11,515 nt of DNA. Origin: a virus. A program made the translations under genes and the position numbers. Under the pieces are notes generated by a model. The model saw nothing but the letters and a program-made list of their open reading frames with translations. It searched no databases and had not been told where the DNA came from. Positions within the stretch are counted from its first letter, which is position 1; each line of letters starts with the position of its first letter. The stretch lies in the UHGV virus genome UHGV-0113878; one strand, 5' to 3'. This document shows, one piece after another, positions 1-11,267 of the stretch.

Positions 1-50
1 TCACAAAGTCACCTGTCACTCTTTCTGGCTGCCAGATAAGGATTGAGTAA
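1..50 (+). CDS. 3' end of an upstream late gene (partial; by position possibly the gp10-like tail hub/head completion gene)
   Basis: The frame ending at TAA 48-50 is open from the window edge (codons 3-5 onward, reading ...[15 protein letters not shown]). The stop overlaps the ATG of the next gene (TAATG), the same coupling used elsewhere in this operon. The product is inferred only from P22 gene order. Confidence 0.3.
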
Positions 51-1003
51 TGGCTGATTCGAATCTCAATGAGCCAGTAATCATCCAGGCTACGCGGCTC
101 GATACATCAGTCCTTCCACGCAATATCTTCTCGCAGTCGTATCTGCTTTACGTTATTGCACAGGGTGCTGATGTTGGTAACGTGGCTAACAAGGCTAACG
201 AAGCAGGGAAGGGGGCTTATGATGCACAGGTGAAGAATGATGAGCAGGATGCCACCCTTGCAGACCATGAATCCAGAATTGCTGCTGCTGAAGCAACTCT
301 CGTCAATCATGAACATAGAATCGCAACAGCGGAAAGCACTCTTGCAGATCATGAAACAAGGATTATGGCTGCCGAAACAGAGCTGGCTGATCACGAGACG
401 CGAATTGCTGCCAATGAATCTGAGTTAGCAGACCATGATGCGCGCATAACTCAGAATACAACCGATATCGACGCACTTGATACCAGGCTCGCAGCGGCAG
501 AGGGAAGTATTTCGACGCTACAAAGCACAGTTGGTGATCACTCAACAAGAATATCTGCGCTTGAGTATGCCACCACGCGCAAGAAATCAGAGGTTGTTTA
601 CTCAGGAGTATCTGTAACCATCCCGACAGCGCCGACCAACCTTGTTAGCCTGCTGAAAACGCTCACGCCGTCATCCGGAACGTTGGCACCATTCTTCGAC
701 ACCGTTAACAACAAGATTGTTGTGTTCAACGAGAACAAAACCTTGTTCTTCAAGCTGTCGATTGTCGGGACGTGGCCCAGCGGAACCGCCAACAGGTCAA
801 TGCAGCTAACATTCTCCGGTTCTGTTCCTGACACACTGGTCAGCAGTCGTAATGCGGCGACAACAACCGACAACATCCTGTTAGCTACGTTCTTCAGTGT
901 GGATAAAGACGGCTTTCTTGCCACAAATGGCAGTACGTTAACCATTCAGTCGAATGGTGCGGCGTTTACTGCCACAACCATCAAGATAATCGCGGAGCAG
1001 TAA
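50..1003 (+). CDS. Tail needle protein (P22 gp26-like) with coiled-coil shaft and C-terminal knob domain
   Basis: The N-terminus [43 protein letters not shown]...[12 protein letters not shown] closely matches the P22 gp26 tail-needle N-terminus as I recall it. It is followed by a heptad-type repeat region (aa 69-152) and a ~160-aa beta-rich C-terminal extension, as in Sf6/HK620-type knobbed needles. SD-like AAGGA sits about 6 nt upstream of the ATG. Confidence 0.85.
254..505 (+). repeat. Six tandem 42-nt (14-codon) coding repeats inside the tail needle gene
   Basis: Translated units are [14 protein letters not shown] / [14 protein letters not shown] / [14 protein letters not shown] / [14 protein letters not shown] / [14 protein letters not shown] / [14 protein letters not shown]. 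They are in frame and diverged at the nucleotide level, with an [AV][DN]HExRI core. Confidence 0.7.
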
Positions 1004-1458
1004 TGATTCAGTTCAAACCAACGCGAAACATCGACCTGATCGAAGCAGTAGGAAATCACCCTGACATTATCGCCGGGAGCAACAACGGTGATGGATACGA
1101 CTACAAACCTGATTGCCGTTACTTTGAGGTGAACGTGCACGGGCAGTTCGGCGGCATTGTTTACTATCAGGAGATTCAGCCGCTGACATTCAATTGCCAC
1201 GCCATGTACCTGCCAGAGATTCGCGGCTTCAGCAAGGAAATCGGGCTGGCGTTCTGGCGATACATTCTGACTAACACCACTGTTCAGTGTGTCACATCGT
1301 TCGCTGCGCGCAAATTCCGCCACGGGCAGATGTACTGCGCAATGATTGGCCTTAATCGTGTAGGAACCATCAAGAAATACTTCAAAGGCGTGGATGACGT
1401 GACATTTTACAGTGCTACACGCGAAGAACTAATCGAATTCCTGAATCACGGGAGATAG
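1003..1458 (+). CDS. Phage protein at the gp14 position (between tail needle and ejection proteins); function not assignable from sequence
   Basis: A 151-aa ORF whose start overlaps the needle stop (TAATG). It keeps the gene order 26-14-7-20-16 of P22-like phages. No motif is recognisable; the protein is Cys/aromatic-rich. Confidence 0.6.
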   Translation: MIQFKPTRNIDLIEAVGNHPDIIAGSNNGDGYDYKPDCRYFEVNVHGQFGGIVYYQEIQPLTFNCHAMYLPEIRGFSKEIGLAFWRYILTNTTVQCVTSFAARKFRHGQMYCAMIGLNRVGTIKKYFKGVDDVTFYSATREELIEFLNHGR

Positions 1459-1460
1459 CC

Positions 1461-2153
1461 ATGTTATATGCATTTAAGCTGGGCAGAAAACTGCGCGGCG
1501 AGGAGCCTTATTGCCCTGAAAAAGGCGGGAAAGGTGGCAGTTCTGATAAAAGCGCAAAGTATGCATCAGAAGCTCAGAAGTATGCCGCAGACCTGCAAAA
1601 TCAGCAGTGGCAGACGATCATGAAAAACCTTGCTCCGTTCACGCCTCTTGCGGAGCAGTATGTTAACCAGCTTCAGAACCTTTCCAGTTTAGAAGGTCAG
1701 GGGCAGGCACTTAATCAGTATTACAACTCTCAGCAGTATAAAGACCTTGCAGGTCAGGCTCGTTACCAGAGTCTTGCTGCTGCGGAGGCTACGGGAGGAC
1801 TTGGTTCGACAGCCACAAGCAATCAACTGGCTACGATCGCGCCGACTCTCGGTCAGTCTTGGTTATCAAACCAGATGAGCAATTACAACAATCTGGCAAA
1901 CGTTGGGCTTGGTGCGCTGCAAGGTCAGGCAAACGCCGGGCAGACGTACGCCAACAACATGAGCAGCATTGCACAGCAAAGCGCAGCTCTTGCCGCTGCT
2001 AATGCCAACAAACCATCAAGTCTTCAGACAGCAATTAGTGGCGGAACGTCTGGTGCGATTGCCGGTGCAGGTCTTGCCAGCCTTTTGGGAACATCAACAC
2101 CTTGGGGCGCTGGCATTGGTGCTGGTATCGGATTGCTTGGCTCGTTGTTTTAA
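1461..2153 (+). CDS. Ejection (DNA-transfer / internal virion) protein, gp7-position
   Basis: 230 aa, close to the ~229 aa of P22 gp7, and in the expected position. It is Gln/Ala/Gly/Ser-rich and ends in a glycine-zipper-like hydrophobic segment (GAIAGAGLASLLG...GAGIGAGIGLLGSLF). Confidence 0.75.
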   Translation: MLYAFKLGRKLRGEEPYCPEKGGKGGSSDKSAKYASEAQKYAADLQNQQWQTIMKNLAPFTPLAEQYVNQLQNLSSLEGQGQALNQYYNSQQYKDLAGQARYQSLAAAEATGGLGSTATSNQLATIAPTLGQSWLSNQMSNYNNLANVGLGALQGQANAGQTYANNMSSIAQQSAALAAANANKPSSLQTAISGGTSGAIAGAGLASLLGTSTPWGAGIGAGIGLLGSLF

Positions 2154-2162
2154 GGGGTAATC

Positions 2163-3494
2163 ATGGCTACTTGGCAAGGATCAAATGGCGGATTGTTGGC
2201 TGGTATCGGCGGCGTCAACTCAAACGCTCCGAGCGTAAATGACATCGGCAATACGCTTCAGCTTATCAGGCAGAACAATGATATTGAGCGTTCAGGTGCT
2301 AACAATGTTGGGCTGACTGCTTTGCAAGGTCTTTCAGGTATTGCGGGTGTTTTTCAGCAGGAAAAGCAGGCTCAGCGGCAGAAAGAATTTCAGCAGGCGT
2401 ACGCTAATGCTTATGCGTCTGGTGATCGCGGTGCTTTGCGTCAGTTGGCTACTCAATATCCAGACCAGATTGAATCCGTTCGTAAAGGCATGGGATTCAT
2501 TGATGAAGAGCAGCGTAATTCTATCGGCACCTTAGCGGCTGGCGCACGCCTTGCGTCATCGTCTCCAGAAGCAATGCAATCATGGCTGCAAAACAACGCC
2601 GGTGAGTTAGCTCGTGTTGGCGTTAATCCTCATGACGTCGCTCAGATGTACCAACAGAACCCGCGGCAGTTCGGCGAATTTGTCGATCACCTGGGGATGA
2701 ACAGTCTCGGGCCAGAAAAATACTTTGACCTACAGGATAAAATGCAGGGTCGCCAGGTGACCATGCGCGGTCAGGATCTGGATTCGCAAACCGCCGCCCG
2801 GAATCAGGCAATCACAATGCGTGGGCAAGATATCCAGGCAAATTTAGGTCAGCAGCGCATTAATCTGGACGCAGAAACAAACCGCATTAACAACGAAAAT
2901 AAGCACCTTGACCGGATGCTATCAGCAGAAACTAACGACCTGAAGCGCCAGGAAATACAGAGCCGCATAGCAGCCAACAACCAGAAGTTGCAGCAGAAGC
3001 AGCAAGAGCTAAATGATGGCTACAAAGACGGCATCAACACTCTCACAACCAGCATGTTCACTCTGAACGATATCGTTAATTCTCCTGCACTTAAGAGCAT
3101 TACAGGCTTGCGTGGAGCAATCCCCAACGTTCCAGGCTCACAAGCTGCAGACACTCAGGCGCGACTTGATACCTTTAAATCCCAAGCATACCTGACAGCG
3201 GTTCAGGCCATGCGAGGCATGGGCGCACTTTCTGATGCCGAGGGCAAAAAGCTCGACCAGGCTGTTGGTTCGCTGCAGAACTCACAGAGCGAGGAGTCCT
3301 TTCGTCGCAACGCTGGCGTCATCCTGAACACGCTCAACCAGAAGCGTAATGAGGCGGTTGGTAAGTACGTTCAGCAAAACGGTATCAAGCGAGTGGAAGC
3401 GCCTCAGGCTTCTATAGATTACCTGAAGCAGCACCCCGAGCTGTCAATCGACTTCATTAATCGCTACGGATATCTTCCATCTTTGGGGCAGTAA
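2163..3494 (+). CDS. Ejection (DNA-transfer / internal virion) protein, gp20-position
   Basis: A 443-aa ORF with a good SD (AAGGGG) upstream. It is Gln/Asn-rich with an internal repeat ([VI]TMRGQD[LI]) and predicted coiled-coil character. Assignment is by size and synteny. Confidence 0.7.
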   Translation: MATWQGSNGGLLAGIGGVNSNAPSVNDIGNTLQLIRQNNDIERSGANNVGLTALQGLSGIAGVFQQEKQAQRQKEFQQAYANAYASGDRGALRQLATQYPDQIESVRKGMGFIDEEQRNSIGTLAAGARLASSSPEAMQSWLQNNAGELARVGVNPHDVAQMYQQNPRQFGEFVDHLGMNSLGPEKYFDLQDKMQGRQVTMRGQDLDSQTAARNQAITMRGQDIQANLGQQRINLDAETNRINNENKHLDRMLSAETNDLKRQEIQSRIAANNQKLQQKQQELNDGYKDGINTLTTSMFTLNDIVNSPALKSITGLRGAIPNVPGSQAADTQARLDTFKSQAYLTAVQAMRGMGALSDAEGKKLDQAVGSLQNSQSEESFRRNAGVILNTLNQKRNEAVGKYVQQNGIKRVEAPQASIDYLKQHPELSIDFINRYGYLPSLGQ

Positions 3495-5888
3495 ATGGCT
3501 AATTACCGTGATTTGTTAGAGCAGGCTGGCGCACGTTACGGTGTGCCAGAAGGGTTGATGACTGCACTGGGTGCCAAGGAGTCTTCTTACAACCCTGCCG
3601 CAGTAAGCTCCGCCGGGGCTGTAGGATTGACTCAGGTCATGCCTGGGACATGGCGTGATATGGGTTATACCGATGAGCAAATGCAAAACCCCGAATATCA
3701 GGCTGACGCTGGCGCGCGCTATCTGGCAAAGATGTACCAGCAGTTTGGTAACTGGCGTGACGCTCTTCAGGCTTATCACGACGGTCCCGGCAACGTTATG
3801 AAGGCAAAGCGTGGTGAATATACGCCAGGACCTGAAGGCCGCGGTTACGTTGATGATCGCTTTGCTCAATGGGCTGGTGACCCGGTGACAGACTCAACAG
3901 TCGAACAGCGCGCCACCTCTGCAAAGGTACATCCTCAGCAAGACCCTAACAACCCGTTTGCACAACTGGAAGTACAGTCATCCGAACAAGTATCGGCATC
4001 AGGTGTGCAGTCAGACCCAAATAATCCATTTGCTCAGATTGAGCAGCAGGCAGCCAGTCAGCAGCCACCTCAACCCGTAAGTTCTGTCGCACCGAAACCT
4101 GTTCAGCAGCAAGGCGGAATAATGTCTGACCTTGGTAATGGACTTGCTGAAACCGGGCGCGGCTTACTACAGGCAGGAATCAACGTAGCGAACATACCTG
4201 CTGAACTCACTGATGCTGTAACAAGCGCGGCGGCTTGGGCTGGCGGTAAACTCGGCATTGGCGATGGTACATATCAACCAGCGCCACGAGTAACAACGCA
4301 GGGATTAGAGCAGGACTTTGGCCTTCAGCAAGGCGCGCTGACTCCACAAACGACAGAGGGAAGGGTATTTGCTGAAGCATTGCCTTACCTCACTCCTGCT
4401 GGCGTTGAGAGAGCGGCGGTACAGGCACCAACACTTGCTGGTCGAATTGCTCAGGGGGCAACTCGCCTTCTAGCAGAAAACGCAGTTGGATCACTTGCTG
4501 CAAACAGTATGAAAGATGATGCTGAAGCACTCGCTACCGATTTAGGCGTTGGTGTGCTGGCTGGCGGTGCTATTAACGCTGCCGGACGTGGATTAGGTGC
4601 TGCTTATCGTGGCGTTCGTGGTGCTATTGCGCCAGAAGCGCAGCAGGCTATCAGATTTGCAGAGCGTGAAGGAGTTCCTCTGCACACCACAGACCTGTTA
4701 CAGCCTACTTCCCGCGTCGGGAAAATGGCGCAGACGACAGCGGAAAATATCCCCCTGGCTGGCACAAGCGGAATGAGAGCAACGCAACAGGAAGCGAGAA
4801 GCCAGTTGGTGCAGAGATTTGCTGATAAATTCGGTGAGTATGATCCAGCTGTTGTTATTGACAGCCTTAAAGCGAAAACATCAGGAATTCGTCGTGCTGC
4901 AGGGAACCGTCTTGAGCAGGTTCAGAATGCAATGGCGGGAGTCAATATCCAGCCTGCTCGAGCAATTCAGCAGATTGATACAGAAATATCTAACCTGCAG
5001 AAGCTTGGTAAGGTCGCCGATAACGAGACTATTTCAAAACTTCAGTCCTATCGTGATGAGCTTGTTCGCAATGCTGGTCCTGATGGTCCGGTAAATCTGG
5101 ATTTGAAGCAATTAAGCGATCTGCGCAGCCAGTTCAGAATGGACGTGAAGGGGGAACGACCAGTGTTACCAAACCGGTCCGATGCTGCCATTCAGCGCGT
5201 TTACAAGGCAATGACAGACGATATCAATGGTGCCATTGGTCAGAATCTTGGCAACGATACTCTCCGTAAATATCAGCAGGCCAATGCCGTCTACGCTGAC
5301 GAAGCGGCGAAACTAAAGAATACCAGGCTGAAGAATGTTCTCATGAAAGGCGACCTGACGCCGGAAGTTGTCAACAACATGCTATTCAGCAAGAACAAAT
5401 CGGAAATTAAGACGCTGTATAACTCAGTTGGTCGTGTTGGCAGGGCGCAAATGCGCAATGGCATCATTGGAAAGGCGATGGAGAAATCAGGTGGTTCCCC
5501 TGACCAGTTCCTTCGACAGCTTAACATCCTGCAAAACCAGACTGGCATCACATTTAAAGGTCAGGAAGCCGCTTATCTGAAAGGATTAAAAAACTACCTG
5601 CAATCCACGCAGCAGGCTGCAAAAGCGGCAGTAACAACACCCACAGGGCAGCAAACTATCCCGTTCATTATTGGGTATGGGACGGCAATGAACCCGGCGA
5701 CAACTGGCGCAGCAGTAAGCTACGGACTTCTTGCTCGCGCCTATGAGAGCGAGCCATTCAGAAATGCAATGCTCCGAATGGCAAACACCCCACGCGGATC
5801 AACAGCGTTTGAGAAAGCCATGCAGCAGGCACAAAAGGCAATTAACGCTATGACGCAGGGGGCTAAGTCTGATGCGTTGTCAGAATAG
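3495..5888 (+). CDS. Ejection protein (gp16-position) with N-terminal family-1 lytic transglycosylase (SLT) domain
   Basis: The N-terminal ~110 aa carry the three classic SLT motifs: AKES (catalytic Glu29, nt 3579-3581), GLTQVMPGTW, and AYHDGPGN. A linker with two DPNNPFAQ[LI]E repeats and a long Ala/Gly-rich body follow. The ATG abuts the upstream stop (TAAATG). Confidence 0.85.
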   Translation: MANYRDLLEQAGARYGVPEGLMTALGAKESSYNPAAVSSAGAVGLTQVMPGTWRDMGYTDEQMQNPEYQADAGARYLAKMYQQFGNWRDALQAYHDGPGNVMKAKRGEYTPGPEGRGYVDDRFAQWAGDPVTDSTVEQRATSAKVHPQQDPNNPFAQLEVQSSEQVSASGVQSDPNNPFAQIEQQAASQQPPQPVSSVAPKPVQQQGGIMSDLGNGLAETGRGLLQAGINVANIPAELTDAVTSAAAWAGGKLGIGDGTYQPAPRVTTQGLEQDFGLQQGALTPQTTEGRVFAEALPYLTPAGVERAAVQAPTLAGRIAQGATRLLAENAVGSLAANSMKDDAEALATDLGVGVLAGGAINAAGRGLGAAYRGVRGAIAPEAQQAIRFAEREGVPLHTTDLLQPTSRVGKMAQTTAENIPLAGTSGMRATQQEARSQLVQRFADKFGEYDPAVVIDSLKAKTSGIRRAAGNRLEQVQNAMAGVNIQPARAIQQIDTEISNLQKLGKVADNETISKLQSYRDELVRNAGPDGPVNLDLKQLSDLRSQFRMDVKGERPVLPNRSDAAIQRVYKAMTDDINGAIGQNLGNDTLRKYQQANAVYADEAAKLKNTRLKNVLMKGDLTPEVVNNMLFSKNKSEIKTLYNSVGRVGRAQMRNGIIGKAMEKSGGSPDQFLRQLNILQNQTGITFKGQEAAYLKGLKNYLQSTQQAAKAAVTTPTGQQTIPFIIGYGTAMNPATTGAAVSYGLLARAYESEPFRNAMLRMANTPRGSTAFEKAMQQAQKAINAMTQGAKSDALSE

Positions 5889-6052
5889 CTTCGCAAACAC
5901 CAGGAACGTGCAAAAACCAAATATATAGAGCGCAATATTCAACAGATCTCTTTGCATAGACTCATCTCATAATTAACAAATCATAACTGACATTAGTGCA
6001 ATGCAGGGCAAGTTGCATCTTGTTCAGCATTGCTACGTCTGGAGCAAATTAA

Positions 6053-8452
6053 ATGACAGATATTACAGCCAATGTTGTAGTGAGTATGCCTTCGCAACTC
6101 TTCACTATGGCGCGTTCTTTTAAAGCGGTTGCCAATGGCAAAATTTATATCGGTAAAATTGACACTGACCCGGTAAATCCTGAAAACCAGATTCAGGTTT
6201 ATGTGGAGAACGAAGACGGTTCTCACATTCCTGTTTCTCAACCAATCATCATTAACGCTGCTGGATATCCGGTATATAACGGGCAGATTGCCAAATTCGT
6301 AACTGTTCAAGGCCATTCTATGGCTGTATATGATGCATATGGCACTCAGCAGTTCTATTTCCCTAATGTGCTGAAGTATGACCCGGATCAGCTACGGCAG
6401 CAGTTAGAAGACCCGGATGGTGCTAAAAAATATCCCGAATTGCAGATTGCACGATGGCGTGATGACAAAGATGTTCGCGGTTGGGGGGCTATCAGTGATG
6501 GAATAACTGACGCTACTGAGGCATTCTCTAACGCAGGCTATAGAATGTTTGTTCCTGATGGCGATTTTGCAGTAAATACTCTCGAAGTTGATGTATCTTC
6601 TGTTCAAGGTATTGGGAGGATTGTTGCTGATAATGGATCTCTTATTTCAGTTTCTCGTCTACTTGAAACTGACAAACTTGTGCAGAGAAAAATGATGGAA
6701 CCTTTTTTTGGTTTTCAGGGAGAAACAAACACAGAAATTTATCCTAATGCCAGAAATGCGTTACAGGGGATCGCATATTGCCGTGTTAATGGCATTGAAA
6801 AACTATTTGTCACACAACGGCCTGTTGGGCCAACCTGGTCAGATAAAGAAAGAGTTCGTATTGTTGAGTTTAATCTTTATGATGATGGAAGGGTAGTAAA
6901 CCATGTTGCGTATTCTCCAGAATTAAACCTTGGGCACGGATTTGATCTTTCTGCCATGGTGGAGAATGGTCAAGTATATTTATATACATCAAGTGTAACC
7001 AATTCAGGTGAAGATGGGGAGTCTGCAGGCAAAGGGTTTAGTAAAATAACTTGGCGAGGGGCAGGAACAACTCAGTCTGACGTAAAAAGTTATAATGTAT
7101 GGGGGATTACTGGTAGCGGTCACCCATTTCAAGATTACAATCGTGCAGGAATTGCCATTTCTTCTGACGGTCGTCTTTTAATAATGGTTAATACACCAAA
7201 GAGTGATGCCGCTAAACGAACTGTATTTATATACGATAAAATATCAATTGATAAACTTGAAGATAAAACATTAGCAAACCCCATGTTTGTTTGGGAAATG
7301 AGCGACTCACCTTCTGAAGGCGCTTACTCTGTACAAGGTATTGCGTCTGATGGAAGATATATACATATACTTAAGGGAGGCACTAATGCTTTTGGAAAGC
7401 ATCATATCTTTACATATGATTTAACAGGTAATTTACTAAGAAAATTAGATATCGATGATGCAAGGTCGCAATATGGGCGCGATGGGTTGCTTAACCATCC
7501 AACTCTTGGGAATCCAGCCAGATTCGAGCCGGAAGGTTTAACTATTCGTGGCGAAGAAATAATTATAAGCTGCATAGAAACATGGAGGGCAGGAGCTAAT
7601 ATTGTAAACTGGCGTGGAAGAAGATGGGCTGCATCATCCATTGAGACTTCTGGAATAATTGGTGTCCCTCCATCAAATGGCTCTTATTGGGTAGAAACAA
7701 CCAAGGATGCAAATTCTGGAGACTGGAGTCCTGATACAGATTATGGATGGGGAAGTAGCTATTCTCTTGAGAAAAAGACAATTTACTCTATACGACCAGC
7801 GACTGGTAACAACGATGAGCAGAACCTTAATTCTGGCATAACCAATGCTTCAAGTAATGCAGGTGTAGATGCCGGAGAAAGCGGGCGAAATATATCATTT
7901 AGATGGCGCAATGCTTTTAATATTGTTGCATTTAGCGAACGTCTTGGTGAGTACTTCAAAGCTATTATGTATGATAATAGCTCAAGATTAAGAATATACG
8001 ATCAGCAAAACGGTAGTGATAACACTGTTTATGGCTCAATCCAGGCACTATTTACGTCATCATTTAAGGGATTGATTTTAAGGGGTAGGGGGGTATCAGC
8101 ATCAAATAGTTCCTATATTAGGTTACATTCATCTGATGATCCAAACTACCCAAATTCGATCATTGAAGGAACAAGAACAGATGGAAGTTTTTCCAGGGAA
8201 ACAGATTCAAACGGAACCACTACATTTGCATCGGACTCAGAGCACGAACCGTTGCGTATCAGAAGGGCTTCAGATGGTTTGTTGTTTGCATACGAGAAAG
8301 TAAGAGGTACAACTCTCTTTGGAATTTATAGAGGCTCCGGTTCACCTGAGGGTGTTGTGACCGCACCTCAGGGGTCAATGTACATTGATTATAATGGTGA
8401 TTGGTATCAAAAGAAAACAGGAACAGGAAATACAGGATGGGTGTTAAAATAG
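6053..8452 (+). CDS. Tailspike protein: P22/Sf6/HK620-type head-binding N-terminal domain fused to a divergent receptor-binding (probable glycan-depolymerase) region
   Basis: The N-terminal ~113 aa ([50 protein letters not shown]...VLKYDPDQ) match the conserved head-binding domain of P22 gp9 and the HK620/Sf6 tailspikes as I recall them. The remaining ~690 aa are unrelated to the P22 beta-helix. GGAG sits 8 nt upstream of the ATG. The gene is markedly more AT-rich than upstream genes. Confidence 0.9.
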
Positions 8453-8532
8453 ACTATTCTATTTTAATTTTTCCCATTAATTAATGATGGGAATCCCAAA
8501 AATTGATAATACATCATCTATTTATAACTCAG

Positions 8533-8701: not shown

Positions 8702-9112
8702 GTGGAAAACATGTCAGCCCAACTAACCAGTGAAACTTTAAATCAGTGGCTTAGCATGAGTTCTCTGGCGGCGGTGATAGCAGGAGTTCCTCCTGAGGTT
8801 GCTTTGGGGGCTTTGGCTGGAGCGGTAATTTTTGTTACCTCTGCGGTAGAGTATCCCATTCGTCGTCGTGTACTCTTGTCGATGCTTAGCTTTCTCTGCG
8901 GCCTTCTTTTTTATAAACCAGCAGCATCAATTCTTATCGGCATAGCCAGCCTGATCCCTACTATCACGCAGGACTCTTTTGAAAAAGGGATTGTTTTCTC
9001 TGCTGGTGCATTCGTGTCAGCAATCGTCGCAGTTCGAATTGGCATCTGGCTCTATCACCGTTCCGATAATCCACGCGAGTTAATTCCGGGGAGAAAAGGC
9101 GATGGTAACTAA
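8702..9112 (+). CDS. Small multi-pass membrane protein, first gene of lysis cassette (putative holin/antiholin-like); likely true start at ATG 8711
   Basis: About four hydrophobic helices and a charged C-terminal tail ([18 protein letters not shown]). GTG 8702 has no SD, whereas ATG 8711 has GGTGGA 4 nt upstream. The 3' end overlaps the next gene by 11 nt. Confidence 0.55.
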   Translation: MENMSAQLTSETLNQWLSMSSLAAVIAGVPPEVALGALAGAVIFVTSAVEYPIRRRVLLSMLSFLCGLLFYKPAASILIGIASLIPTITQDSFEKGIVFSAGAFVSAIVAVRIGIWLYHRSDNPRELIPGRKGDGN

Positions 9113-9410
9113 TGAGCTTGTTTTGCTTATCACCAATGCACTTATTTGTACTGGCATAGCAATTCGTGTTGTCACATTCCGGCGTAACGGTTCACAACAT
9201 CGAAGATGGGGTGGCTGGCTTGCTTATTTTCTGATTGTTGCTGCGGCCAGTATTCCAGTTCGTGCTGTCTATGCAATCTGGCTACGCACGCCAATGGCTG
9301 TGGATTTATCTGAGGTCATTATCAACGCTGTCATGCTTGCTGCGGTTCTTAAAACTCGCGGTAACGTTGTTCAGATTTTCAAAATAACGAGGTCTAAACA
9401 TGGAGATTAA
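9102..9410 (+). CDS. Putative class-I-like holin (3 TM, N-out/C-in predicted)
   Basis: 102 aa with three hydrophobic segments, a positively charged TM1-TM2 loop (RRNGSQHRR) and a charged C-terminus ([19 protein letters not shown]). It lies immediately upstream of, and overlapping, the endolysin gene. Confidence 0.6.
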
Positions 9411-10029
9411 ACAATTCCAACGAGCTGCTGGTATTAGCGAGGTGCTGGCCGCACGCTGGTTCTCGCATATAACTTCTGCGATGAAAGAGTTTGATATCAG
9501 CAAACCAGAAGATCAGGCAATGTTTATTGCTCAGGTCGGGCATGAGTCTGGAGGCTTCACCCGGTTGCAGGAAAATTTCAACTACAGCGTCAGCGGACTG
9601 GCGAGCTTTGTCAGGACTGGACGCCTCACCCAGGGACAGGCTAATGCACTGGGGCGCCGTGCTGGTGAACCACCATTGCCACTTGAGCGCCAGCGCGCGA
9701 TCGCAAATCTGGTTTACAGCAAACGCATGGGTAACAATGCTCCCGGCGATGGCTGGAATTACCGTGGGCGCGGGCTTATCCAGATTACCGGTTTGAATAA
9801 CTATCGTGACTGCGGAAACGGTCTGAAAGTTGACCTGCTGGAGAATCCTGAACTGCTGGCGCAGGACGAATACGCGGCTCGTAGCGCGGCGTGGTTCTTT
9901 GCCAGCAAAGGATGCATGAAGTATACCGGTGATATTGCACGTGTAACTCTGATTATCAATGGTGGCCGGAACGGCATCGACGACCGGCGCGCGCGGTACG
10001 TCACTGCCAGTAAGGTGCTGGCTATATGA
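9400..10029 (+). CDS. Endolysin, glycoside hydrolase family 19-like (chitinase-class-I-type phage lysozyme)
   Basis: 209 aa with GH19-type motifs: GHESGGF...ENFNY (Glu49 at nt 9544-9546, Glu58) and [15 protein letters not shown]. There is no N-terminal signal or SAR hydrophobic segment. GAGG lies 7 nt upstream of the ATG. Size and motifs resemble the GH19 endolysins of Salmonella phages such as SPN1S, as I recall them. Confidence 0.88.
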
Positions 10030-10508
10030 TCTTAGCATTCGTAAAAGCATATCAGAAACAACTACTTATCGTGGTGATGCTTGCTGCTCTGTTCATCGTC
10101 GGAGTGGTTGCCTGGAATATACACGGCAGTCGCCAGTACGATGCCGGGTATGCGCAGGCGGAAGAAGACCGCAAAGACGAAGAAGACAAAGTTCGTCAGT
10201 ACTACGAACAGGAGAAAGTGACCAATGAACGTGAAGCGCAGCAGAGAATCGACCAGGCGCGCAATGATGCTCTTGATGCTGCCGCTCGCGCTGGCAGGTT
10301 GCAGCAACAACTCTTTGCCATCCGTGAGCAGCTCAGGCAGTATAACGCCATTGTCGGCGCTGGGACGTCAGCCGCAGACACCGGAGTTTTGCTTGCCGAC
10401 GTGCTCAGCAAATCTCTCGAGAGAAACAGACAACTGGCAGAGTATGCTGACCGGGCAGCCGAAGCCGGAAGAGTCTGCGAAAAACAGTATGACACCCTGA
10501 CAAGATAG
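10026..10508 (+). CDS. i-spanin (Rz-like): N-terminal TM anchor plus periplasmic coiled coil
   Basis: The start overlaps the endolysin stop (ATGA). An N-terminal hydrophobic helix ([18 protein letters not shown]) is followed by a charged, Gln/Arg/Glu-rich helical region. A complete lipoprotein ORF is embedded in the +1 frame. Confidence 0.8.
10225..10500 (+). CDS. o-spanin (Rz1-like outer-membrane lipoprotein), fully embedded in the i-spanin gene in the +1 frame
   Basis: Signal peptide with lipobox LALAG|C (Cys26, nt 10300-10302) and a Pro/Ser-rich mature region of ~66 aa. AGGAGA lies ~8 nt upstream of the ATG. The embedded layout matches the lambda Rz/Rz1 paradigm. Confidence 0.75.
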   Translation: MNVKRSRESTRRAMMLLMLPLALAGCSNNSLPSVSSSGSITPLSALGRQPQTPEFCLPTCSANLSRETDNWQSMLTGQPKPEESAKNSMTP

Positions 10509-10727: not shown

Positions 10728-11267
10728 TTAATTAAACCAGCTGTCCGATTTGTTCTCTTCTGCTTTGCCCACGCTTTTCATCAGATCTCGACCGCCCTCA
10801 GTCATATTCCTGTTTGCGTCAGCTTCAGATTGCACCACATCGGTTTGCGCAGCTTTGTGCTTCAGTTCCTGATCGATAAATTCGTTTTCTCGCTTAACGC
10901 GGGCTTCTTCTTTCGCCAGCGCCAGTTTTTGTTTCTGAATCTCTAAGCTGCGTAGCTCATCTTGATAACTTTGATCGCGTTTTTTGTCCGCAGAGGCTTC
11001 GGCGTCCAGTTTATCCTGACGAGCTTTCTTATTTGCCGCTGCCGTTGTCGCTCTTTTGTTAGCGGCGGCCTGGGCGTTTGCGCGACGTTGCTTCTCTTGC
11101 TGGATTTCCCTGTTGCGCTCCGCGACCCATTCGTCATGCTGCCTTTGCTCTTCATTTTTACCTTGCTGTTCCGCTTCTGCGACAGCAGAGAGTTGATCCT
11201 GCAATGATGAGGCGATAGCCGGATAGCTTAAGGAAGCTAAGATGGCGCAAAGAAAAACTTTCTTCAT
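10728..11267 (-). CDS. Secreted/periplasmic highly charged coiled-coil protein of unknown function
   Basis: 179 aa with an N-terminal signal peptide (MKKVFLCAILASLSYPAIA|SS) followed by a Lys/Glu/Gln/Ala-rich predicted helical region. The SD (AGGAG) is correctly spaced. It is convergent with the phage genes. Confidence 0.7.
   Translation of the reverse strand: MKKVFLCAILASLSYPAIASSLQDQLSAVAEAEQQGKNEEQRQHDEWVAERNREIQQEKQRRANAQAAANKRATTAAANKKARQDKLDAEASADKKRDQSYQDELRSLEIQKQKLALAKEEARVKRENEFIDQELKHKAAQTDVVQSEADANRNMTEGGRDLMKSVGKAEENKSDSWFN

Follow-up and report, generated by a model that had tools for sequence, protein, structure and literature searches.

The shaft of the tail needle encoded in the analysed stretch of DNA is very probably a coiled coil, part of a trimeric needle of a P22-like prophage, of E. 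coli, whose number of 14-residue repeat units changes through in-register misalignment of the encoding DNA. The stretch, referred to below as the window, is 11,515 nucleotides long, and the shaft is encoded at positions 251-565. Judging from its sequence, the window protein is the HS1 prophage needle in a near-identical allelic form, carried by another E. coli prophage, and the core finding has already been published. The additions of the present analysis are incremental. They consist of a wider quantised range of shaft lengths (6-19 heptads), clean microhomology junctions in the DNA of length variants, and the alternation of His and Ala at heptad position d.

A needle with a plug, a shaft and a knob

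The needle gene occupies positions 50..1003 of the + strand (317 aa plus stop). It is orthologous to P22 gene 26 and Sf6 gene 9 and belongs to the HS1/Sf6 type. Its product is ordered as a gp26-like N-terminal plug, a 15-heptad shaft, and a TNF-like knob. The sequence-only reading had taken this ORF for a tail needle, and the database searches agree. The PHROG 'tail needle protein' (phrog_1219) covers residues 1-111 with an E of 3.6e-57, and PHROG 1030, 'tail needle knob', covers residues 111-317. Likewise, Pfam PF16532 (Sf6-type tail needle knob) covers residues 136-317 with an E of 6.7e-107, scoring 355 bits where the gathering cut-off is 27. Matches in the PDB were 4k6b and 3rwn (knobs), 2poh and 3C9I (P22 gp26), and 5bu5 (HK620). 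A search of NCBIfam returned only weak generic coiled-coil matches and no specific model for the needle protein.

The gene is 100% identical in nucleotide sequence to a gene annotated as 'tail needle knob protein' in E. coli strain 7/2, and a match to it is present in 888 of 5426 complete E. coli genomes. In many E. coli O157:H7 and related genomes, genes carrying the same annotation match the knob part only (nt 507-952, ~95% identity). In these genes, a different N-terminal part may be joined to the knob, or the gene may be truncated.

The N-terminal tail-hub-binding (plug) domain, delimited by alignment with P22 gp26, comprises residues 1-67 and is encoded at 50..250 (+). In the PDB search, residues 1-78 aligned with P22 gp26 (domain E 1e-33), and the HK620 needle (5BU5) matched residues 1-119. 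The plug ends in the residues NDEQD (236-250, +), which form a layer with N at position a, Q at d, and D at e. The NxxQD motif in this register (N63 at a, Q66 at d) is the calcium-binding layer of P22 gp26 (PMC13580157). N63, Q66, and D67 are invariant in needle alignment A1. Together with N122 and N136, which fall at position d, they occupy the register positions of putatively ion-binding polar core layers of trimeric coiled coils.

The TNF-like knob consists of 145 residues (residues 173-317; 566..1000, +) and matches 4k6b and 3rwn with an E of about 1e-89. Residues 165-317 are ~98% identical to the HS1 knob (PDB 4K6B) and to the Sf6 knob (3RWN). The HS1 knob differs by three substitutions in 153 aligned residues (T166/S, I223/M, and A269/S). 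The residues E181, K235, S283, and D285, which contact L-glutamate (PMC3741392), are all present in the window knob. The S266-R267-N268 triad, whose role is described in the same source, is present too.

Needles of P22-like phages are 220-320 Å long and contain 11-16 heptads (PMC3741392). The HS1 prophage needle is 317 aa long and has 16 heptads, compared to 11 in Sf6 and P22 (Leavitt et al. 2013, PMC3741392), and its shaft is predicted to be 210 Å long (PMC3741392). This needle (EcHS_A0316 of E. coli HS; PDB 4K6B) has the same length and the same domain order as the window protein. Earlier work on it includes purification, modelling, and partial crystallisation. The gp9 needle of Shigella phage Sf6 (PDB 3RWN) resembles the window needle in its plug, its knob, its gene position, and the DHExRI double heptads at the start of its shaft. 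However, it is 282 aa long, 5 heptads shorter than the window needle, and its distal shaft is built from a different 28-residue unit (TRIAQNE SDIASLD TRVQSLE SQVSDHE) that is present in 0 to 3 copies among relatives. In gp26 of Salmonella phage P22 (2POH, 3C9I) and the HK620 needle (5BU5), the N-terminal domain is homologous to that of the window needle, the NDEQD layer is present, and the core is a trimeric coiled coil, but another C-terminal domain takes the place of the knob. Compared with P22 gp26, the window needle contains an insertion of three 14-residue units after residue 68. By analogy with the solved homologues (2POH and 4K6B) and with the needles described in PMC3741392, the window needle is expected to be homotrimeric.

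Repeat units and heptad register of the shaft

Five well-kept 42-nt units, each encoding 14 residues, lie at 251..460 (+) and share the consensus x-T/E-L-A-D-H-E-x-R-I-A-A-A/N-E. These are U1 (251-292), U2 (293-334), U3 (335-376), U4 (377-418), and U5 (419-460), all on the + strand. They are followed by a degenerate sixth unit, U6 (461..502, +; DALDTRL), which has no His and is 14-43% identical to the others in amino-acid sequence, with the heptad phase kept. A lone extra heptad, GSISTLQ (503..523, +), then puts what follows half a unit out of the 14-residue register, and a spacing of 147 nt corresponds to 3.5 units. The seventh unit (524..565, +; GDHSTRI) is one heptad out of step, and its two heptads complete the shaft ahead of the knob. 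The residues YATTRKK come directly after it.

The sequence-only reading had described six tandem 14-residue units at 254-505, all with a conserved [AV][DN]HExRI core. The period, the frame, and the location of the array stand, with the array placed at 251-502. The core is less uniform than described: the motif is strictly matched by U1-U4 only, U5 reads ADHDARI (that is, HDxRI), and U6 is without the motif. The seventh copy lies outside the range given for the array. The array was also said to be more regular than that of P22 gp26, and this is borne out, as the aligned gp26 has two DHExRI units compared to five plus one in the window needle.

The periodicity was measured by shuffle-tested self-similarity, and the nucleotide periodicity that had been expected of the array is significant. 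The best in-frame lags within 254-505 were 42, 84, and 126 nt. Nucleotide identity at lag 42 was 0.538, compared to 0.303 +/- 0.031 in codon-shuffled sequences (z 7.5), and this level was reached by 0 of 5000 shuffles. Across all lags, the maximum identity that 1000 shuffles produced was 0.473. At the protein level, identity at lag 14 was 0.529 compared to 0.109 in shuffles (z 11.8). A repeat search also recovered the 42-nt spacing, with copies 60-74% identical. The array was not called by Tandem Repeats Finder at a minimum score of 30. The lag-42 signal is strong between about nt 239 and nt 430, beyond which it fades.

How old are the repeats? Among same-residue codon pairs of units 1-5, the same codon was used in 30 of 81 pairs, and 29.2 were expected from codon usage. 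Conservation of the amino acids thus suffices, and it fully accounts for the nucleotide periodicity of the window. Recent duplication within the window allele was considered and rejected on the basis of this comparison, because synonymous-codon identity without an excess gives no sign of such an event. For the same reason, the window repeats are poor substrates for recombination that needs long homology; the longest exact words repeated between units are 10-11 nt. The repeat units of the window allele are old.

The assignment of the repeats to a coiled-coil shaft, made earlier from the sequence, is supported by alignment, by structure prediction, and by the heptad register. Residues 69-126 of P22 gp26, part of its solved trimeric helical core, align with residues 111-168 of the window protein. 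An AlphaFold2 model of the monomer, built on a 23-sequence alignment, consists of a single unbroken helix from residue 29 to residue 176, with a pLDDT of 94-98 across the repeats. The heptad register was anchored on N63 at a and Q66 at d of gp26 (PMC13580157) and on I133 of gp26, which is located at position a (PMC4786415). In this register, residues 70-171 read LILILILILIILIVI at position a and HAHAHAHNHNLALHL at position d. L, I, or V occupies all 15 a positions from residue 70 to residue 168 (L70 is at a). Position d has the series H A H A H A H N H N L A L H L; in other words, His alternates with Ala or Asn, giving six His layers and two Asn layers. The 14-residue unit thus appears to be a double heptad whose a layer is hydrophobic and in which one d layer would contain three His and the next would contain small Ala or polar Asn.

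In the proposed arrangement, the shaft would be a rigid spacer between the plug of ~67 residues, which sits in the channel of the tail hub, and the knob at the far end. Each 14-residue unit would add ~21 Å, given a helix rise of ~1.5 Å per residue.

Shaft lengths of relatives and the DNA junctions between them

The number of repeats had been suggested to set the length of the needle, and a survey of the best 120 database relatives points the same way. Their lengths were 254, 268, 282, 289, 296, 303, 310, 317, 331, 338, and 345 aa; fragments, one 324-aa protein, and a few odd lengths were also included. The 324-aa protein has the same 105-residue shaft length as the 317-aa alleles; its differences from them lie outside the shaft. 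For 187 sequences, the shaft itself was measured between NDEQD and YATTRKK, and 183 had shafts of 42, 56, 70, 77, 84, 91, 98, 105, 119, 126, or 133 residues, which corresponds to 6-19 whole heptads. Heptads were counted here from residue 68, one fewer than in the published count, on which the range would be ~7-20 compared to 11-16. The same N-terminus and knob are combined with shafts of 42-133 residues that differ in steps of 7, 14, or 28 residues. All length variants have an intact ORF.

Shafts out of heptad phase were found as 4 singletons among the 187 sequences. They carry a 27-residue duplication (P0054) and deletions of 5 residues, 1 residue, and 32 residues. Events of other kinds thus take place, but rarely. 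In P0054 (309 aa, on a 5.03-Mb E. coli contig), the 27-residue segment NHEERISQAESTLQEHETRIAQNESDI is present as two tandem copies, and the heptad phase is shifted by one residue. This duplication could be a tolerated coiled-coil discontinuity, or the gene could belong to a dead prophage.

To see how unit number changes, junctions were mapped in the DNA of eight length variants. In L081 (345 aa), units 1-2 (84 nt) are duplicated exactly and in tandem, with an 8-nt junction, CTTGCAGA. In the window, this word lies at 257..264 (+) and again at 341-348, 84 nt apart. L082 (331 aa) carries an exact 84-nt tandem duplication of the same units, with a 3-nt junction, CAC. The two duplications are independent events because their junctions differ. 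The reverse change, a deletion of these 84 nt, is seen in L086 (289 aa). Besides its duplication, L082 carries a 42-nt deletion at CGCGAAT. A single 42-nt deletion, at AGAATTG, is all that separates L085 (303 aa) from L012 (317 aa) across the whole gene. In L087 (268 aa), a 147-nt deletion at TGATCAC joins the DH motif of unit 4 to that of unit 7; in the window, this junction word lies at 388..394 (+) and again at 535-541, 147 nt apart. In the Sf6 lineage, 0, 1, 2, and 3 copies of an 84-nt unit give proteins of 254, 282, 310, and 338 aa, respectively. No nucleotide differs between these copies, and 11 nt of microhomology, CATGAAACGCG, lie at the junction. The copy number of the three-copy 84-nt array (L083) could be mis-assembled. 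Nucleotide similarity beyond that due to shared amino acids was found in relatives only, in the exact 84-nt copies of L081-L084. The nucleotide-identical 84-nt copies, together with the 42-nt difference between L085 and L012, indicate that duplication and loss of units are ongoing.

These junctions lie on short identities inside the repeat motif, in agreement with the earlier suggestion that the repeats are a substrate for slippage or recombination. In the window, the repeated words CTTGCAGA and TGATCAC are potential sites of the same misalignments. Among exact repeats of at least 7 nt in the shaft DNA of the window, 7 of 9 are spaced at multiples of 21 nt, and knob DNA of equal length has 0 of 5 at such spacings. 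A mechanism consistent with these observations is that the conserved motif makes short DNA identities 42, 84, or 147 nt apart, and misalignment at these identities, by replication slippage or unequal crossing-over, would change the number of units. With the identities in register, nearly all products would keep the heptad phase and would still fold. In-phase products would then be near-automatic because the motif places the microhomologies in register. As a result, the bias toward in-phase lengths could come from the mechanism alone, without selection for folding.

An alternative source of length changes is homologous exchange between the needle genes of co-resident phages, with intragenic slippage playing a lesser part. 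Mosaicism is a feature of P22-like phages, and between the HS1 and Sf6 needles, the shaft is less conserved than any other part of the gene (67% identity, with the ends at 98-99%; PMC3741392). The HS1-type and Sf6-type shafts are furthermore 5 heptads apart and differ by many substitutions. However, the copies duplicated within one gene are nucleotide-identical, and the identical flanks of the deletion that separates L085 from L012 refute mosaic exchange for this event. Junction identities of just 3-11 nt also fit misalignment within a gene, in one genome or between sister copies. Exchange as the main source of length change is therefore judged unlikely, and in-register misalignment is preferred.

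Are the variants that this misalignment would produce functional needles? The two commonest forms are 282 aa (3620 members) and 317 aa (one 90% cluster of 1430 members). Among isolated phages, vB_EcoP-720R6, JEP4, and Gally have needles of 317 aa, and Sf6, N7, and Kapi1 have needles of 282 aa. Extreme needle lengths were not found among the isolated phages of the phage collection, which had the 317- and 282-aa forms only, and nearly all alleles in IMG/VR scans were of these two lengths. For most of the non-standard lengths, just one or a few sequences are known, and most rare alleles come from draft, short-read, or read-archive assemblies. These observations, along with the four out-of-phase singletons, one of them on a 5.03-Mb contig, would fit a view of the variants as decaying defective prophages or assembly artefacts whose repeat number has no biological use. 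This view is quite unlikely, because the variants keep the N-terminus and the knob in an open frame and several of them recur. For example, the 303-aa form makes up 31 of the 120 best relatives listed, including contigs of 4.7 and 5.3 Mb, and one such protein (P0010) was found on 13 contigs. The 289-aa form is present in E. coli 536, and the 268- and 331-aa forms are present on 7 and 5 contigs, respectively.

Further evidence against this view comes from a lengthened gp26 with a duplicated helical core, whose structure was solved (PDB 4LIN). The entry, deposited as 'Tail needle protein gp26', is presumably an engineered, artificially elongated gp26 fibre. Its sequence contains an in-phase duplication of the helical core that can be likened to the natural 14- and 28-residue units, but the duplicated block is longer than in natural alleles, and the tip is of the P22 type. 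The crystallisation of this duplicated core makes the folding of lengthened needles plausible.

Possible roles of the shaft and the genome context of the needle

The needle plugs the channel of the P22-like tail and projects past the tailspikes, a position that suggests first contact with the outer membrane. Because the needle both plugs the channel and projects outward, its length and stability could influence the timing of DNA release. A tentative and rather doubtful extension is that the shaft is a tunable ruler: through the microhomologies of the DHExRI double heptad, E. coli prophage populations would go on producing needles of ~6-19 heptads (a difference in shaft length of ~130 Å), whose length would be selected for the thickness of the envelope, O-antigen, or capsule, or for the timing of ejection, and the His-core double heptad would be a general, unannotated building block of phage fibres. 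On the ruler reading, the number of His layers, instead of length, may be what is selected. Needle length was compared with tailspike length in 20-kb IMG/VR loci with no phylogenetic control. The median tailspike was 652 aa with 282-aa needles (n=53) and 690 aa with 317-aa needles (n=39). No clear coupling was found in these loci (Mann-Whitney p 0.08, or 0.11 with equal lengths collapsed), and tailspikes of ~450-900 aa were paired with both needle classes. The natural alleles form a ready-made series for testing needle length in infection. In addition, their clean in-phase gains and losses of units offer a rule, taken from nature, by which fibres of different lengths could be designed.

The His layers raise another possible role. 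His at position d could make the shaft sensitive to pH or metal and thereby aid the release or unfolding of the needle during infection. In support of this idea, the six d layers of His are flanked by Asp or Asn at c and by Glu, Asp, or Ser at e, and H73, H87, and H164 are nearly invariant in needle alignment A1. Unrelated long fibre proteins of phages also contain the DHExRI double heptad, and ions are bound in polar core layers of gp26 (PMC13580157). On the other hand, the number of His layers differs between alleles, from 3 to 8, and swaps of shaft segments are viable (PMC3741392). Literature searches found nothing on a role of core His residues in gp26. A sensor function of the His layers is, on this evidence, very doubtful.

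The distribution of the unit outside needles was seen in a search with residues 1-173 against 1.84 billion representative proteins. Two proteins combine the needle N-terminal domain and DHExRI units with other C-terminal parts: in P0127 (489 aa), the tip is a GDSL lipase/esterase domain, and in P0121 (425 aa), a long C-terminal region has no Pfam match. Five large non-needle proteins (P0181, P0191, P0225, P0236, and P0243) contain 4-10 copies of the double heptad. Their runs of x-x-L/I-x-[DN]-H-E-x-R-[ILV]-x-x-x-E are spaced by 14 residues, as in the window; however, these proteins are uncharacterised and lack the needle N-terminal domain and the knob. P0181 (1820 aa) has a C-terminal Peptidase_G2 intramolecular-chaperone domain, which is typical of phage fibres, and a region resembling a pre-neck appendage. 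Searches of Pfam and NCBIfam found no curated family for the DHExRI repeat itself. It is very unlikely that the 14-residue period is a mere by-product of coiled-coil packing and that the length differences reflect old, independent divergence: synonymous sites at random expectation between the window units, the missing call by Tandem Repeats Finder, and weak matches to generic coiled-coil families would fit, but conservation extends beyond the core to b, c, e, and g (T/E-L-A-D-H-E-x-R), and relatives contain identical tandem copies and a parent/derivative pair that differs by a 42-nt deletion alone.

The surroundings of the needle gene are those of a P22-like tail and ejection module. A Phage_stabilise (gp10-like) gene abuts it upstream in relatives and in E. 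coli annotation. Downstream are genes for a DUF2824 (gp14-like) protein, P22_gp7, Inj_translocase (gp20), a gp16-like SLT fusion, and a head-binding tailspike. The window is 99.7% identical to E. coli chromosomes over positions 1-8469, and the best chromosome matches end at ~8469, just past the tailspike. The tailspike is followed by a lysis cassette with holin-family ORFs (8702-9112 and 9102-9410), a GH19-type endolysin (9400-10029), and a DUF2514 gene (10026-10508). A DUF5384 gene (10728-11267, -) follows the cassette. For a P22-like genome, it would be unusual to have lysis genes straight after the tailspike.

Two features of the ejection genes were also observed. The protein at the gp16 position (3495-5888, +) is 797 aa long and begins with a domain of the lytic transglycosylase (SLT) type (residues 7-110); in other words, a cell-wall-cutting enzyme is fused to an ejection protein. 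P22 gp16 has ~609 aa and is not known to contain an SLT domain. Inside the gene for the gp7-like ejection protein, a 21-nt unit occurs twice at 1550-1591 (+), with 81% matches.
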